DNA of 47,766 bases, taken from IMG/VR virus record IMGVR_UViG_2541047895_000008, positions 1-47,766 of that record, one strand, 5' to 3'. Below the pieces are notes generated by a model, which searched no databases, was not told the origin of the DNA, and was given only the letters and a program-made list of their open reading frames with translations. Each line of letters starts with the position of its first letter. Position 1 is the first letter of the stretch. A program made the translations under genes and the position numbers. Shown piece after piece: positions 20,494 through 46,875 of this stretch. The stretch comes from a virus. Lineage: Duplodnaviria > Heunggongvirae > Uroviricota > Caudoviricetes.

Positions 20494-22075
20494 GTGGTGT
20501 TGTCTCCTCTTCCGGCCTGCGACTCTCCGCTATCTGCTGCTGATACGCCTGCGCTATCCACACCGGACGTGAGAGTCCGGCTTTTTCCCGCTCTGCAGAT
20601 TCCCTGACCTGCTGGCGGAAAATGTCCTGATAATCCTCGCCCATCAGCGCCAGCTCTTTCTCATACGTGCTCAGTCCGGCCTCAATGCGCATCACTGATT
20701 CCTGAACCTCCTTGAGCCCGTCAATGGCCATTCTTCCGGCTCCAATCCACTCAGCCCGTGACCAGGCTGATCGCGCCTGATAAAAATCAAAACGTGCCCG
20801 TGGCGGACGAATAATCCCCCGAAGAAGTGCCTCTTCCAGCCAGCAGGAAAACATCTGCGTGGCCAGCCGGGACGCAATAAATTTTCGCCGCCCCATAAAA
20901 TAGCGCCACGACTCATTGGCGGATGCGCGGGCACTTGAATAACTGACCTTCGAGTAATCACGGGACAACTGTTCGTAGGAAACGCCAAGACCGGCGGCGA
21001 TATACCGCAGCAGCGCCTGTTCAAGCGCCGAAAATCCATTGTCTGAATCCTGCGCGGTCTGAAGTTTCAGATCATCACCGGGGAAAAGGTGCGGAATTTT
21101 GACACCGCCCAGCGTCACGCTATTCGTGTCATACCAGGTGGAGAACTTATCCAGAATATTAATAAGCGGATTATCCTTCTGCCCCTGCGGCGCACCGGCG
21201 ATATATTCAAAGGCCTTTTCGGTATCAAGGTCACTTTCAATCGTCGCTGCATACATCGCCTTCACTATGGCCGACTGAAGCTGTGTTGCCTGCAGGGAAT
21301 CGAGCATCTTCAGCCGTTCCATTACGCTGTAAAACTGATTGGCCCCACGGGTCTGCCCGTCCTCCACCGGCTCGAAAATATGCAGCATGGCCGGACGCCC
21401 GGTGGGAAGTTCACGCGGGATCCGTTCCCATCGTCCACTCCCAGAGAACGGAAAATCATCCTCACAGATATGGTACGCAACGGCACGACCATATCGATCG
21501 ACCTCCACACCGGCCCGCAGAAAACGGTTCCCCATACCGTGTCCTGGCGTGTCCACCCGTTTCGGACTCACGGCTTTAAAACGCGTACGAAACAGTTGCG
21601 TGCTCTCCGTATCCCAGACCGGCTGCACAAAGATTTCGCCGTTAAACGCATGAACGCCCACACCTTCACGAATAAATTCCGTAAACGTGCGTTTCTCTTC
21701 CACGTCGATCTCGCCAGACATCCCTTCGGCGTATTCCGACCAGGCCGCCTCCACCTCATCGACAAAACTTTTTGCCGCAGTCTCCCGCATCCCCAGCCAG
21801 CGCCAGTTCGGACGGTAGCTGATCAGAAACATATGCCCGACAATATGATCCTTATGCAGGGCCACCGCATTGGCCGCTATCCCGTTATTGCGCACCAGAT
21901 CATCTGCCCGGGCATTCCCCAGACGCAACGCAGGCAGCAGGGCTGCATCGGCACTCTGCGCCGGTGGCAACCACTCCGCCATTTGCCCGCCAAATCCTGC
22001 GCCGCCCCCGTTGTAGCTGAGACTCTCACGAAGCGGAACGCCGTTCACATCAATCAGGACAGGCGTTCGTTTCAT
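20483..22075 (-). CDS. B: Portal protein B
   Basis: 530 aa, lambda gpB-like. Confidence 0.9.
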   Translation of the reverse strand: MKRTPVLIDVNGVPLRESLSYNGGGAGFGGQMAEWLPPAQSADAALLPALRLGNARADDLVRNNGIAANAVALHKDHIVGHMFLISYRPNWRWLGMRETAAKSFVDEVEAAWSEYAEGMSGEIDVEEKRTFTEFIREGVGVHAFNGEIFVQPVWDTESTQLFRTRFKAVSPKRVDTPGHGMGNRFLRAGVEVDRYGRAVAYHICEDDFPFSGSGRWERIPRELPTGRPAMLHIFEPVEDGQTRGANQFYSVMERLKMLDSLQATQLQSAIVKAMYAATIESDLDTEKAFEYIAGAPQGQKDNPLINILDKFSTWYDTNSVTLGGVKIPHLFPGDDLKLQTAQDSDNGFSALEQALLRYIAAGLGVSYEQLSRDYSKVSYSSARASANESWRYFMGRRKFIASRLATQMFSCWLEEALLRGIIRPPRARFDFYQARSAWSRAEWIGAGRMAIDGLKEVQESVMRIEAGLSTYEKELALMGEDYQDIFRQQVRESAEREKAGLSRPVWIAQAYQQQIAESRRPEEETTPRET

Positions 22076-28837: not shown

Positions 28838-30688
28838 TTATGCTGCCGGTGCATTTATCTCCAGCACCAGACTTTCTATCTCAACGCCATACGCTGCATT
28901 TTTTGTAACATCCGTCAGCGTCAGCGCATTCAGTCCCAGTGTCAGACCGTCTTTTATAACCTGGAATGCCGGGCCAGCCACTCCATTCAGTTTCGGAGTA
29001 ACCGTGGCACTGCCGGCGGTGAACACCAGCTCCAGCGTCTGCCAGTCGTTACCGTAATCGCCGAACTCCCCCAGCTTCGTGTTTCCGGCTTTCCTGTGAT
29101 GCATCAGATTCACTCTGCCGTCAGTGGTCTGAGTGAAGTACGACATCAGGAACGGATTACCGGTACCCGTCATCGCCACACCATCAGGAACGGGAGCATC
29201 CGTATACAGATAAATCCCCAGCCCGAACTGATTGTTGGTCAGTGCGCCTGACAGGCGGAACTTACAGGTCAGTCTGCCGCCCTGTGTCAGCAGGGTAATT
29301 GCGTCATCCACCGGATGCGTCAGGGACCAGGTTTTATTGCTCTGCTTGGTGATCTTAAATACACCATCTGACAACTGAATTCCGCCATCCTTAATGCTCC
29401 AGCCCTGCGCAGCAGCCTCTCCGGCTGCCGGCAGCAGGGAGATTGTGCGAACGGACGTATCTGCAGACGGACCCGATGGCGTGTTGCCGCCGGGCGAGGG
29501 TTTGATTTCCGGTGCCTTACCACTGATGAAGGCTGAGGTGCGCCCGGCTGCGTTCAGAATAGCGGTTGCCAGACGATCCGGAATAATGCTCCTGCGCGCC
29601 CATGAACTGAAATGTGTCGGGCGGTTTGATGATACCTGGTTTCCATTCGTTCTCGATGCCGCACCGTAATATCCTGATGCCGGAATATCCGGATCTTCTG
29701 CCGGCGCGTTAGTGGCGGTATTGACGCCGTTACCGTCTGTCATGAAGGGCACAAAATAAACGCCCTCACTCTCCCTGTTTTTATACCCGCCGTACACGGT
29801 GTCGTATTGGGTAGCGTATGTATTTTTCCAGTAATACGTCGTGTCACCACAAATCCACGGCACATCTGCAGCGCTGCCACCATGGCACTGCGCGTTAAAC
29901 ACGGAGAGGTCAGCACGAAACTGTGTCAGCATGGCTGTAAACAGCGCAGGTTGCTGTGCGTGGGTGGCGGCGCTCATGTCAAACTCACCCTGCATCCAGC
30001 AGACGGCCAGCAGAACGTTTTTGGGATTTTTCTGCAATGCCGCTTTTGTGCGGGAAATCAGATCCTGATATAACGGCTTGCCCCCCCCCCAGCGTGCCGA
30101 ATCCTGACTGGCCCCCGTGGACTCGCTGAATGTCCCCTCCGCGCCCTGGGTAAATGCCGAACCACCACGACAGCATGGTACCAGCAGGATCCCCGCGTTA
30201 TTCGGGATATACGGGAGCAGTTTTTTGGCAATATGTAAACCCTGGCCGACACAGCCGTACTGCCCTTTGCTCAGGTCAGCCCTCGGATGATTCAGCGTAC
30301 TCATATCCTGCACATCATGCAGACAGTGGTCAGCCGGAATAATATCGTTATATCTGCAGGCAGCCCCGCCCGGCGTCACTGTACTGCGGCGCGCCAGCTG
30401 TTTAATGCGCGGATCCGGAGCATCGTATGAATCCGGCAGCGGAAGCCCTTCACCGTAAGCCATGGCATTGGACTGCCCGGCCAGTACGATGACGTAGTAC
30501 CAATCCGGCTCAGATGAAGGGCCGACCTGTGGCTCTCCTTCAATAGCCACCGCCTGCATCAGTGTGTACGGCGTAATGGCAACCGGTCCGCCGTATGGCT
30601 GCCAGCCCTCTTTCAGTTTGTGTGTCAGCTTTTCCGCAAGGTCTGACGGCGACGCCGCCCTGACAACATCATAATGTTTAATCGACAT
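28838..30688 (-). CDS. nanS-p: NanS-p-like sialate O-acetylesterase (DUF1737 plus SASA domain)
   Basis: MSIKHYDVVRAASPSDLAEKLTHKLKEGWQPYGG.. (DUF1737) then esterase domain; sits between the stx-equivalent position and the holin as in Stx phages. Contains a G10 tract. Confidence 0.8.
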   Translation of the reverse strand: MSIKHYDVVRAASPSDLAEKLTHKLKEGWQPYGGPVAITPYTLMQAVAIEGEPQVGPSSEPDWYYVIVLAGQSNAMAYGEGLPLPDSYDAPDPRIKQLARRSTVTPGGAACRYNDIIPADHCLHDVQDMSTLNHPRADLSKGQYGCVGQGLHIAKKLLPYIPNNAGILLVPCCRGGSAFTQGAEGTFSESTGASQDSARWGGGKPLYQDLISRTKAALQKNPKNVLLAVCWMQGEFDMSAATHAQQPALFTAMLTQFRADLSVFNAQCHGGSAADVPWICGDTTYYWKNTYATQYDTVYGGYKNRESEGVYFVPFMTDGNGVNTATNAPAEDPDIPASGYYGAASRTNGNQVSSNRPTHFSSWARRSIIPDRLATAILNAAGRTSAFISGKAPEIKPSPGGNTPSGPSADTSVRTISLLPAAGEAAAQGWSIKDGGIQLSDGVFKITKQSNKTWSLTHPVDDAITLLTQGGRLTCKFRLSGALTNNQFGLGIYLYTDAPVPDGVAMTGTGNPFLMSYFTQTTDGRVNLMHHRKAGNTKLGEFGDYGNDWQTLELVFTAGSATVTPKLNGVAGPAFQVIKDGLTLGLNALTLTDVTKNAAYGVEIESLVLEINAPAA

Positions 30689-31166
30689 CGAATTTCTCCC
30701 GTGTAGAGGAACAGAGTTAAAAAGCCGGAAGCGGAATCAAATCACAGGATGACCATCTGCCAGTGGCTGGTCGTAAAAAAAAGGCCGCGCCATGCGCAGC
30801 CGAAAATAAAGGGATAACGATGATAGTTTGAGAAAAACAGAAATAACACTTTTGTGGCAAAGCATGGTGCCGGGTGCCTCCCGGTGAATTCAGTATCAGC
30901 ACCTGAATCCGCGATTACCCCATATTCCTTCTTGCTGATTGCCCCACCGCACAGGGGGATTCACCATGCAGAAGTGTTTTTAATAAACAGCAAACAAAAA
31001 AATCAAGCATTATGCAGGCTGTTTCTTTTTATCACCGGCCACAGCAATACCATAATGCCGCAGACCAGCACCCCATCCGCCAGCACCGACATGATTCTGC
31101 TGGTGAAATCCACCATCACCACCAGAAACAGCAGGAGTGCAGCCACAGTCAGGCGCAGTTTTACCG

Positions 31167-31599
31167 TCACAGGTAATTCTCCAGACGAAGACCCAGAACA
31201 CCGGCAATCTCTTCCAGCACCTTGCGCTCTTCCGGCTCAATTTCGCCGTCTGCCTCCGCAATGGCCACCGCCACATCCAGCACATCTTCCGCTTCACGCG
31301 TATCGTGTTTCACATCCTCGATCTCACGTAACGCCGCACGACGACCAGTTTTAAAGTTCGTATCCAGCTGACCGATAATGGTTGCGCTAATCGCATTAAT
31401 TTCTGACGTAAACGCGTACAGCGCAGGCTGATTACGCAGTACCTGTTCGATCTTCGCTTTCTAGGAAGCCTCACATTCACCATCTGCACAGGCCACCAGG
31501 TATGCGGCGTTAATCACCACCTGTGCCAGATCGCGTTTTTCAAACTTTTTAATTTCCGTTGCCGCTCTGCGGGCTTTTTTTACCAAAAATACCAAACAT
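31167..31599 (-). pseudogene. TerB-like (tellurite-resistance-domain) ORF disrupted by a frameshift and an in-frame TAG
   Basis: ATG at 31599 then an A7 run shifts frame after 16 codons. The other frame reads ..AAYLVACADGECEAS-TAG-KAKIEQ...VAIAEADGEIEPEERKVLEEIAGVLGLRLENYL with paired ADG-type motifs; TAG at 31461..31463. Confidence 0.5.
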
Positions 31600-31768
31600 C
31601 GTGACGTTCCTTTGGGTGGGTGAGCCAACGCCCGGGAGCGATCTGCCCACAGAGAAAGTCACACTGACCACTCCATAAGCTCCCCCCGAAAGGCTCTGTG
31701 GTTGGTATGCGCCGGGCGTGGTGCGGATACAAAAAAGGTCCGCAAAAGCGAGCGAGGGAAAATAAGTG

Positions 31769-31845
31769 TGGTGCGTTGTACTGGGTTCGAACCAGTGACC
31801 GATTGCTTAGAAGGCAATTGCTCTGTCCGGCTGAGCTAAAAACGC
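31769..31845 (-). tRNA. argO: tRNA-Arg (anticodon UCU)
   Basis: Cloverleaf GCGUUUUUAGCUCAG...CCUUCUAAGCA...GGUUCGAACC...ACGCACCA; third of the phage tRNA trio. Confidence 0.8.
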
Positions 31846-31858
31846 AGAATACCGATAA

Positions 31859-31935
31859 TGGACCGCCATCGGAGACTCGAACCCCGCGAAACCAGCTTCG
31901 AAGGCTGGCGTTCTATCCCGATGAGCTAATGGCGG
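31859..31935 (-). tRNA. argN: tRNA-Arg (anticodon UCG)
   Basis: Acceptor stem CCGCCAU/AUGGCGG, anticodon loop CUUCGAA, T-arm GGGGUUCGAGUCUCCG, 3' UCCA. Confidence 0.7.
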
Positions 31936-31942
31936 TATGTGA

Positions 31943-32018
31943 TGGTGGCCCTTGCTGGATTTGAACCAGCGGCCTGGCGATTATGAGTCGCTCGCTCTCA
32001 CCACTGAGCTAAAGGGCC
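31943..32018 (-). tRNA. ileZ: tRNA-Ile2/Met-like (anticodon CAU)
   Basis: GGCCCUUUAGCUCAGUGGU..GACUCAUAAUCGC..GGUUCAAAUCC..GGGCCACCA, close to the ileX-type tRNA. Confidence 0.8.
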
Positions 32019-32143
32019 GGGCGCAGGATAATAACGTTACGAAATCAATGTTGCAAGCATTCAAGAATCACCTGGTTAAAAATTACCCTTGCTTCCTCCA
32101 CCAGCGCATTCACCATGTCTATCCGAGATAAGTGGCACAAAAA

Positions 32144-32165
32144 AACCCGCTTGTGGGCGGGTTTT
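32144..32165 (-). terminator. tR'-like terminator of the short late leader transcript
   Basis: cccgc-ccacaa-gcggg hairpin followed by U7 on the - strand, ~65 nt after the Q-like stop. Confidence 0.65.
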
Positions 32166-32228
32166 GTTTGCTTTTGCCATCACGTACAAAATCGGCAAAA
32201 TATCAGATTTGCATGAAATATATGCCTT

Positions 32229-32924
32229 TCAATCTACTTTTGCAACACTTTGCTTTGAAAATGCCGCCTTTTGTTTTGAACGCGTTCTCATTACAAACAA
32301 TAAAGCCTCACTATCCAGTCGGTGAAAAATGTGTTTCATTGCAACCCAGTGACGAGTAAATGTTTTGGACCAGTTTTTAGTTGTCACTCCCACCAGTAAT
32401 GCCAGCTCCTTGTATTCATAACCTTCCCCACCAAAAAGTTCTGCTTTTACTGCCTGCGCCGCCAGCCAGATTAATTTTTTCAGGCGTTCCTGCGTTTTCC
32501 CTGCAATTTTTCTGGTACCGGATTGAGTATTAAATTCATTCCACGCCCACTGTGTTATCGCGATCTGATATTCCCAACAAATACTCCCGCTGTAACACCA
32601 CAACAACCAGGCTTTATGATGTTCTTCAAGAGACAGAACAGCCCGCCGCCACGATGATGTCGAAAACTCAATCGGACTGACCAGAGGAATTGACGTCCCC
32701 TTCGCCAGCGATTGCTTTCCCGGGATTGGTGGATTATCCCGCGTTATCATTTTTCCAGTCACTTCATCGCGGTACCGGATTTTTTTTCGCCTGTAACGCC
32801 CTGTATCGAACATGGCATTCTCCTGCCAGGCTTCAAGCTGACCTTTTGTTGCCCCACTCAAATCAGCGGTGGCGATAATGAGCTGCTCACGCACAAACTG
32901 TAAATACTGGTTATTCATGCGCAC
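32229..32924 (-). CDS. Putative late-gene antiterminator (Q-like, by position)
   Basis: 231-aa ORF immediately upstream of the tR'-like terminator and tRNAs and downstream of rusA; family not confirmed from sequence. Confidence 0.5.
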   Translation of the reverse strand: MRMNNQYLQFVREQLIIATADLSGATKGQLEAWQENAMFDTGRYRRKKIRYRDEVTGKMITRDNPPIPGKQSLAKGTSIPLVSPIEFSTSSWRRAVLSLEEHHKAWLLWCYSGSICWEYQIAITQWAWNEFNTQSGTRKIAGKTQERLKKLIWLAAQAVKAELFGGEGYEYKELALLVGVTTKNWSKTFTRHWVAMKHIFHRLDSEALLFVMRTRSKQKAAFSKQSVAKVD

Positions 32925-34786: not shown

Positions 34787-34942
34787 TTACTCCTCAGGTT
34801 CGTAAGCAGTGAAGACAGCGACCTCCGTCTGGCCGGTTCGGATTCGTACCTCGCAGAGGTCTTTCCTCGTTACCAGTGCCGTCACAATGACGGTTAAACA
34901 GATGACGATCAGGGCGATTAACATCGCCTTTTGCTGCTTCAT
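34787..34942 (-). CDS. hokD: Hok/Gef-family type I toxin (HokD/RelF-like)
   Basis: MKQQKAMLIALIVICLTVIVTALVTRKDLCEVRIRTGQTEVAVFTAYEPEE (51 aa); AGGAG SD; structured leader upstream. Confidence 0.85.
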   Translation of the reverse strand: MKQQKAMLIALIVICLTVIVTALVTRKDLCEVRIRTGQTEVAVFTAYEPEE

Positions 34943-35641
34943 AGCCTGCTTCTCCTTGCCTTTCGGCACGTAAGAGGCTAACCTACATGTGTTCAGCATG
35001 GATTGAGCCTCAGATTAATGTTAAGCGTCTTGCAGGACGCGTAATGTTAACTGGGGCTTTTCTCTATCTGCCGTTGGTGTTCATGCCCGAGGCAGATAGC
35101 CTCAAGCACCCACAGCCATTCTACTTAACTACCGTTACCTCGCCAATATGAAATCAGTCAGAAAGGCGATCCATAAGAACAACAGCAAGGCAATAAATTG
35201 CCATTACAGCAGCAATAGCCAGCGCACATTTGAGAACAAGCACCACAACCTCCTGTATTGGACGTACACCAGTCCTGATAAATATGAGGCTGTCTCGTCA
35301 GTGATTCAATACAACTATTGGGTATAGTTTCTGTGATTTTGTTCTGTAGAAATGGAACACGACAACCAGTCACCACCAGCACTTCTTTAAATACGCCAAG
35401 TCCGACGCAAGCTAACCTTCTAGTCCGCTTTGAGCGAGAAGCGGACGTTCAATGTGATAAAGCTCAGGAACATTGTCGTTGATGATGATAAAGAGGATCA
35501 GACTAACTTAGCACTTCTCATCACGTTGATAAGGCATAGAAATTACAAACACTATTGTGAATATCGTTTTACTATAGTAAATTCAAGTAAGTTCTTTTCG
35601 TTCGTTATTACACAAAATAAAGTTCACTCTAAGGTTGAAAA

Positions 35642-46785: not shown

Positions 46786-46875
46786 TGGCGGAGAGAGGGG
46801 GATTTGAACCCCCGGTGGAGTTGCCCCCACTCCGGTTTTCGAGACCGGTCCGTTCAACCGCTCCGGCATCTCTCC
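46786..46875 (-). tRNA. serU: tRNA-Ser (anticodon CGA), serU-like; prophage attachment target
   Basis: GGAGAGAUGCCGGAGCGG...GGUCUCGAAAACC...long variable arm...GGUUCAAAUCCCCCUCUCUCCGCCA, 90 nt. Confidence 0.85.

Follow-up and report, generated by a model that had tools for sequence, protein, structure and literature searches.

The stretch of DNA between the late-leader tRNA genes and an STnc100-family sRNA is best read as a variable slot for cargo ('moron') genes in the late-operon leader of a Stx-phage-like lambdoid prophage beside tRNA-Ser, here holding the cassette tciA-tciB in the place of stxAB. We give this reading a probability of about 0.85. The window, by which we mean the whole stretch of 47,766 nucleotides analysed here, is a non-Stx lambdoid prophage. 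Its tciA is a recently inactivated cargo gene of the late operon, interrupted by an additional A in a homopolymer run and by an in-frame amber codon, and its partner tciB is kept. The finding is real and the first interpretation of it correct, but it is ordinary. The cargo history of the locus is less unusual than the sequence-only reading implied, because the locus is common and already annotated.

The cargo slot and its flanks

As summarized in Table 1, the minus strand carries, in order, Q, pR'/tR', tRNA-Ile2/Arg/Arg, the TerB-family frame, and a 55-aa membrane protein. In identical genomes, PGAP labels the Q gene 'bacteriophage antitermination protein Q'; its profile family, PF06323, is the type found in Qin and phage 82. 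The tR'-like hairpin folds at -21.2 kcal/mol (z -4.06), with none of 200 shuffles equally good, and the terminator at 30801..30783 folds at -15.4 kcal/mol (z -3.4). The tRNA cluster is the equivalent of ileZ-argN-argO. The Q-like gene, tR'-like terminator, and three tRNAs that had been taken for a Stx-phage late leader were thus all recovered, and their flanks are homologous to those of phage 933W.

Table 1. Features of the late leader and cargo region, given as positions in the window.
Feature	Position	Strand	Evidence or detail
Q late antiterminator	32918..32229	minus	PF06323, 310 bits, profile positions 1-217 of 220
pR'-like promoter	32245..32217	minus	Promoter scan, 9/12 matches; overlaps Q end
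tR'-like intrinsic terminator	~32165..32135 (stem 32165..32142, then U7)	minus	Hairpin ACCCGC...GCGGGU
pT-like promoter	32056..32028	minus	Promoter scan
tRNA-Ile2(CAT)/Arg(TCG)/Arg(TCT) cluster	32018..31769	minus	ARAGORN and Rfam; CAT = Ile2 per PGAP
tciA pseudogene, TerB family, 143 codons	31599..31167	minus	ATG 31599, TGA 31169..31167
tciB, intact, 55 aa	31170..31003	minus	GTG start; PF13064, PHROG 1470
STnc100-family sRNA	30998..30826	minus	Rfam RF02076, 100.8 bits against a gathering score of 47
Intrinsic terminator between cargo/sRNA and nanS-p	30801..30775 (stem 30801..30783)	minus	8-bp GC-rich stem, then U8
nanS-p-type esterase, 616 aa	30688..28838	minus	Pfam DUF1737, SASA and DUF6645

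The position of the cassette was established by comparison with 933W, whose annotated order is Q, pR', qut, terminators, pT, ileZ, argN, argO, a terminator, stxA2, stxB2, a SASA esterase, and the holin; its pR' and terminator features are arranged as in the window. By BLAST, window 32056..31720 matches 933W 21082..21419 at 90.6% identity, a match that runs from pT through ileZ, argN, argO, and the terminator to 43 nt before the stxA2 ATG. Homology returns at window 30987 (933W 22789), 87 nt past stxB2, and again at the start of the esterase. Because homology to 933W ends and resumes at these points, the slot is bounded by the argO-type tRNA region and STnc100. Its content is 1.36 kb of stxA2B2 in 933W versus 0.72 kb of tciAB in the window, and no stx sequence was found in the window, where the 0.72-kb segment encodes tciA and tciB only. 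The proposal that a TerB-like ORF lies where stxAB sits in Stx phages is therefore upheld, since the flanks align with 933W on both sides of stxA2B2.

The two loci thus share pR'/tR', pT, ileZ-argN-argO, cargo, STnc100, nanS-p, and holin, with homologous flanks. In 933W, STnc100 (207.7 bits) starts 75 nt after stxB2; it also follows tciB in JLK-2012 and NE122. The nanS-p esterase and holin lie downstream of the cargo in both 933W and the window, and nanS-p homologues follow stxB2 in 933W and, in both JLK-2012 and phage 434, tciB. Unlike the window, 933W carries an unrelated cargo (an AB5 toxin operon), a different Q family, and the antisense AsxR sRNA beside STnc100; Rfam searches detected no AsxR in the window. 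The window counterpart of the 933W post-argO 'terminator' is a weak fold (-8.4 kcal/mol, z -1.7). A promoter scan returned no minus-strand promoter-like site between the last tRNA and the ATG that could serve as a promoter of tciA's own.

Several further features of the prophage were recorded. The STnc100-family sRNA directly 3' of tciB is without the terminal hairpin of the Rfam model, and a separate terminator follows it (Table 1). The coding strand of nanS-p contains a G10 homopolymer at window 30081..30090, produced by a synonymous GGT to GGG change that joins G6 and G3; apart from this change, strain AMSHJX01 has an identical gene. At this site 2015C-4136CT1 carries G9, and the esterase gene of that strain is frameshifted according to RefSeq. 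The G10 run is a newly formed slippage-prone tract. The early region is Qin/Sp10-like, marked by a sok antitoxin RNA (113.5 bits; 34937..35111, minus strand) adjoining hokD and by the DicF sRNA (76.7 bits; 42396..42447, plus strand). The prophage adjoins tRNA-Ser(CGA) at 46786..46875, with mtfA alongside in matching genomes.

Identity of the tciA-tciB cassette

The first gene of the cassette encodes a single-domain protein of the TerB fold of about 143 aa, as judged from profile and homology searches. For these searches, one A was deleted and the TAG was masked to give a translation of 143 aa. The claim of a TerB-like frame was borne out by an HMM search on this frame-corrected translation, which passed the cut-off of Pfam TerB PF05099 (39.9 against 24.4 bits, E 5.9e-10, profile positions 7-109 of 118). 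The translation also matches PHROG 632 over positions 1-143 of 143 (E 2.1e-68). By tblastn, the identity of the repaired frame is 95.8% with TciA of JLK-2012 (E 1e-82), 64-74% with homologues from jumbo phages of Salmonella and Erwinia, and 50.7% with the TciA proteins of P1, P7, and D6. The solved TerB structure PDB 2JXU is matched by phmmer (E 4e-7, 33 bits). An NCBIfam search of TciA gave sub-threshold similarity to DjlA only. A chance ORF in place of a TerB gene is ruled out by the Pfam, PHROG, tblastn, and PDB matches.

Repaired TciA contains two acidic A-D-G-x5-E motifs, ADGECEAS[E] at residues 38-46 and ADGEIEPEE at residues 116-124. Four residues (D39, G40, G118, E124) are invariant in an alignment of eight sequences. 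Two PHROG families with short profiles align only to its C-terminal part, phrog_3920 (48 positions) to residues 96-143 and phrog_9865 (74 positions) to residues 74-143. Both probably arose from gene prediction on damaged tciA genes in other phages.

The second gene, tciB, matches DUF3927 (PF13064, 60.4 bits) and PHROG 1470 ('TciB-like', E 1.8e-29). Its product, WP_000216649.1 in RefSeq, has two hydrophobic segments by hydropathy. This agrees with the membrane peptide suggested from the letters of the sequence, although that peptide had been put at 53 aa and the protein is 55 aa long. The GTG start overlaps the stop codon of tciA in the sequence GTGA, and the gene has its own GGAG 8 nt upstream. 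We define the cassette as tciA-tciB because the frame matches the TciA family and the downstream peptide matches DUF3927/PHROG 1470.

The same adjacency of tciA and tciB is present in P1, JLK-2012, LMessi, and pSal-SNUABM-04. The cassette follows Q in JLK-2012 and LMessi, and phage 434 has tciB only at this position. All ten contexts compared have an intact tciB. In addition, tciA-tciB adjoins tRNA genes in unrelated phages: Asn/Thr and Met-or-Ile in P1, Asn/Thr/Gly in JLK-2012, Trp/Cys in the Salmonella jumbo phage pSal-SNUABM-04, and Ile2/Arg/Arg in the window (31769..32018). This recurrent neighbourhood may reflect only shared hot spots for cargo.

The lesions in tciA and their spread

From ATG 31599, tciA opens MFGIFGKK and enters an A7 run at 31575..31581, which is A6 in the alleles that start at ATG. 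Read from this ATG, the frame gives MFGIFGKKSPQSGNGN and ends after 16 codons, at the TAA at 31551..31549. With one A deleted from the tract, the frame instead reads MFGIFGKKARRAATEIKK and onward. The neighbouring frame comprises ARRAATEIKKFEKRDLAQVVINAAYLVACADGECEAS, the TAG at 31463..31461, and 97 more codons to the TGA at 31169..31167. The amber codon is codon 46, which is GAG (Glu46) in all intact homologues compared. In the eight-sequence protein alignment, Glu46 closes the first of the two ADGxxxxxE motifs in the TerB domain, and it is retained even in the homologues of Pseudomonas phage AF and LMessi, at 43-44% identity. Alignment with intact homologues thus supports both lesions described by the sequence-only reading, the frameshift as one A more than in the A6 alleles and the stop as a GAG to TAG change at exactly the place proposed.

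An alignment of four alleles shows the following states. Those of JLK-2012 and E. coli 95-3192 have A6, an ATG start, and GAG at codon 46. The O157:H7 TR01 allele, which is widespread, has A7, a TTG start in the RefSeq model, and GAG; the window allele has A7, the same modelled TTG start, and TAG. The window and TR01 genes differ by the GAG to TAG change and one synonymous change, with no other difference. The change from A6 to A7 at codon 8/9 cuts off the conserved ATG and the MFGIFGKK N-terminus, and the amber codon at Glu46 deletes two thirds of the TerB domain. The N-terminus MFG(I/L)F.KK is found in all homologues aligned, including those of P1, Salmonella, Pseudomonas phage AF, and LMessi. 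Since every one begins in this way, we take the A6/ATG form to be ancestral and A7 to be a genuine +1 insertion. The pN/pS of tciA against JLK-2012 is 0.09, a mark of past purifying selection; this long-term value indicates a gene that still worked until recently. The intact translatable ORF expected of a working TerB member is not present in the window, and its tciA is a pseudogene of the TerB family rather than a working member.

Both lesions are widespread. In a collection of 5,426 complete E. coli genomes, which contain about 2,800 copies of tciA, the 71-mer centred on the TAG occurs exactly in 521 records (about 10% of complete E. coli genomes) and that centred on A7 in 554. Approximately 122 records have both lesions on the window background, as counted with a 161-nt synthetic A6+TAG query whose best matches were 99.4% identical, a one-base gap being the sole difference. 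No A6+TAG allele on the window background was found in the collection, those A7+TAG sequences being the nearest; A7 is therefore not younger than TAG on this background. However, TAG also occurs where the 5' end of tciA, including the A run, has been replaced, so that any ordering of the two lesions is tentative. At least 19 complete genomes share a 1,541-bp segment from Q to the esterase at 100% identity; among their sources are seawater, fish, chicken, pig, cattle, panda, and humans.

The second prophage context of the TAG was seen in O157:H7 NE122 (its second copy) and O145:H28 RM13516, in each at 3232..3850 of the locus extract. Here tRNAs are absent, a different antiterminator of 273 aa precedes the gene, and unrelated sequence takes the place of the first ~17 codons of tciA. 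The flanking SNP backgrounds differ as well. Altogether, the amber allele has at least three local SNP backgrounds, all of them known with GAG too, and its carriers are mostly EHEC/STEC and relatives. The occurrence of the same TAG in a second prophage context indicates that the allele is old enough to have been shuffled among prophages. EHEC genomes typically hold 3-5 copies of tciA, with intact alleles coexisting in the same genomes, and gene conversion or recombination among these copies is the simplest account of the spread. Recurrent mutation may be an alternative origin of the amber codon on several backgrounds.

How far each lesion contributes depends on the start codon. On an allele identical to that of the window, RefSeq/PGAP annotates a 'tellurite resistance TerB family protein, internal stop' pseudogene. 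For A7 alleles, RefSeq starts translation at TTG 31595, 4 nt past the ATG, and so avoids a frameshift call; for the same reason the internal stop is its sole flag on the window allele. It is possible, though doubtful in our judgement, that A7 alleles do work from this TTG and that the amber is the only lesion of a single-hit pseudogene. PGAP treats the A7/GAG protein of TR01 (WP_001303558.1, 142 aa) as intact, no further lesions separate that allele from the window, and the TTG is close enough to the ATG that the two could share the AAGGAA Shine-Dalgarno sequence. However, the product would begin MVFLVKK, whereas MFG(I/L)F.KK opens every homologue from those of E. coli phages to that of Pseudomonas phage AF, and the stronger ATG is still present and would draw most ribosomes into a 16-codon dead end. 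A second lesion on an A7 background also fits relaxed constraint, and no A6+TAG allele was found on the window background. We prefer the frameshift reading of A7 to the TTG model because all distant homologues start MFGxF.KK. We take the RefSeq model to be a rescue call of doubtful reality, although A7 alone is possibly not fully inactivating, since RefSeq accepts the A7 allele without the amber from TTG.

Homopolymer runs such as A7 are typical sites of error, so that tciA might be intact in the organism and both interruptions products of sequencing or assembly; this we regard as negligible. The TAG is a substitution and not a homopolymer error, the exact 71-mers recur in hundreds of records of independent complete genomes, and the identical 1,541-bp segments come from different laboratories and hosts. 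Sequencing error is ruled out as the cause by these population counts. It is very improbable that the interruptions are regulatory, with TciA tuned by slippage at A7 (transcriptional or +1 ribosomal), by read-through of the amber, or by both, and with A6/A7 as a phase-variable switch. Contingency tracts typically lie where this run does, at codons 7-9, both lengths circulate, and the amber allele is surprisingly frequent. Yet A7 is short for efficient slippage and is limited to alleles of at least ~97.7% identity, with A6 in the more divergent ones, which fits a single event rather than repeated switching. Likewise, there is no suppressor among the three phage tRNAs (Ile2, Arg, Arg), and the second context pairs the same TAG with a replaced 5' end in a decay-like manner. 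We also think it improbable, if less so, that loss of TciA is adaptive in EHEC-type hosts and the amber favoured, either through conflict with the chromosomal ter island or the cost of late expression, or with TciB alone as the selected cargo, as in phage 434. The frequency of the amber in mainly EHEC/STEC genomes and its several backgrounds agree with this, as do the intact tciB genes in all contexts and the presence of tciB without tciA in phage 434. However, hitch-hiking on successful prophage modules together with gene conversion predicts a high frequency equally well, and intact alleles persist beside the amber in the same genomes. We infer instead that the lesions are young decay, spreading among co-resident prophages by recombination. 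Neutral decay with recombination explains a frequent amber allele on at least three backgrounds, but does not prove that this was its course.

Predicted expression, related systems, and significance

Q-modified RNA polymerase resists termination. By extension from lambda and Stx-phage biology, the cassette would be transcribed mainly from pR' by such polymerase on induction, as for stx. Strong expression would be confined to induction, because the pR' transcript needs Q to pass tR' and the later terminators; read-through from pT, the tRNA promoter, may give some expression in lysogens. Since terminators do not stop Q-modified polymerase, the amber should have no polar effect on the downstream esterase and lysis genes. 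TciA is probably not made in the source strain; initiation at the ATG would yield no more than a peptide of 16 aa, and initiation at TTG 31595 no more than a fragment of ~44 aa. TciB should still be translatable from its own GGAG.

In its intact form, the pair would most likely act at the inner membrane as an amphitropic TerB protein with a small membrane partner; our best guess, by analogy with TerB proteins of the ter operon and of defence systems, is a role in membrane surveillance, exclusion, or stress protection. TerB proteins have been described as membrane-associated or amphitropic and occur in the Bunzi, Shango, and Dionysus anti-phage systems, for which membrane surveillance has been proposed (bioRxiv 10.1101/2022.05.11.491447; 10.1101/2025.09.30.679545). 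TciA resembles the TerB proteins of these systems and TerB of terZABCDE (PDB 2JXU) in fold family, in its two acidic 'DGxxxxxE' motifs, and in its pairing with a membrane protein. Unlike the ter and defence systems, the window has no other ter genes, and the similarity is distant (33 bits to 2JXU). PADLOC models gave no convincing match to tciAB, the best being a purely local one to PDC-S48 (E 0.006, 13.7 bits), and none of the neighbouring genes encodes an ATPase, a helicase, or a pore-forming protein. Membership in the known TerB defence systems (Bunzi, Shango, Dionysus) was rejected for want of a convincing PADLOC match and of partner genes. A role in defence or exclusion is an analogy because no PADLOC defence model matches convincingly. 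The sole functional datum found is that tciA, tciB, and tciC of P1, from which the name tci is derived by homology, were scored nonessential (PMC10695390); tciAB of the window would likewise be dispensable for phage growth.

The closest relatives are the cassettes of JLK-2012 and P1. JLK-2012 (O55:H7 DEC5E; GenBank JQ347801) has the same order of Q, three tRNAs, tciA, tciB, STnc100, yjhS/nanS-p, S, R, and Rz, with DNA 91-94% identical and TciA as given above. Unlike the window, it has an intact tciA (A6, GAG), a different Q, and tRNAs Asn/Thr/Gly. In P1, as in P7 and D6, a TerB-family TciA (50.7%) is followed directly by a DUF3927 TciB beside tRNA genes. P1 differs in having a third small gene, tciC, in its context of a phage-plasmid rather than a Q-dependent late leader, and in that its genes are intact. 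The RefSeq pseudogenes DTO54_RS16800 and E3172_RS09885 are 100% identical to the window in sequence and context. A dead tciA in the stx slot is thus already known, as a RefSeq pseudogene in hundreds of genomes, and tciA/tciB of JLK-2012 are annotated at the same position. The literature located on tciA at the stx position consists of annotation-level mentions only (P1 gene lists and a 2026 preprint by Zhu, Shabalina, and Storz). In that preprint TerB is one of the conserved neighbours of the prophage sRNAs PasA/PasC, close to RusA and the esterase gene (bioRxiv 10.64898/2026.05.13.724894). The one aspect that is mildly unusual is the high frequency of the amber allele, together with its presence on several backgrounds.

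No other cargo slot of Stx-type phages is induced as strongly as the one between the late-leader tRNAs and STnc100. The cargo carried there by non-toxigenic relatives helps to reconstruct how stx was acquired and exchanged, and the present comparison locates the exchange boundaries with a precision of a few tens of bases. As cargo alternative to stx, tciAB has a wide distribution, and its TerB family is now turning up in anti-phage defence.
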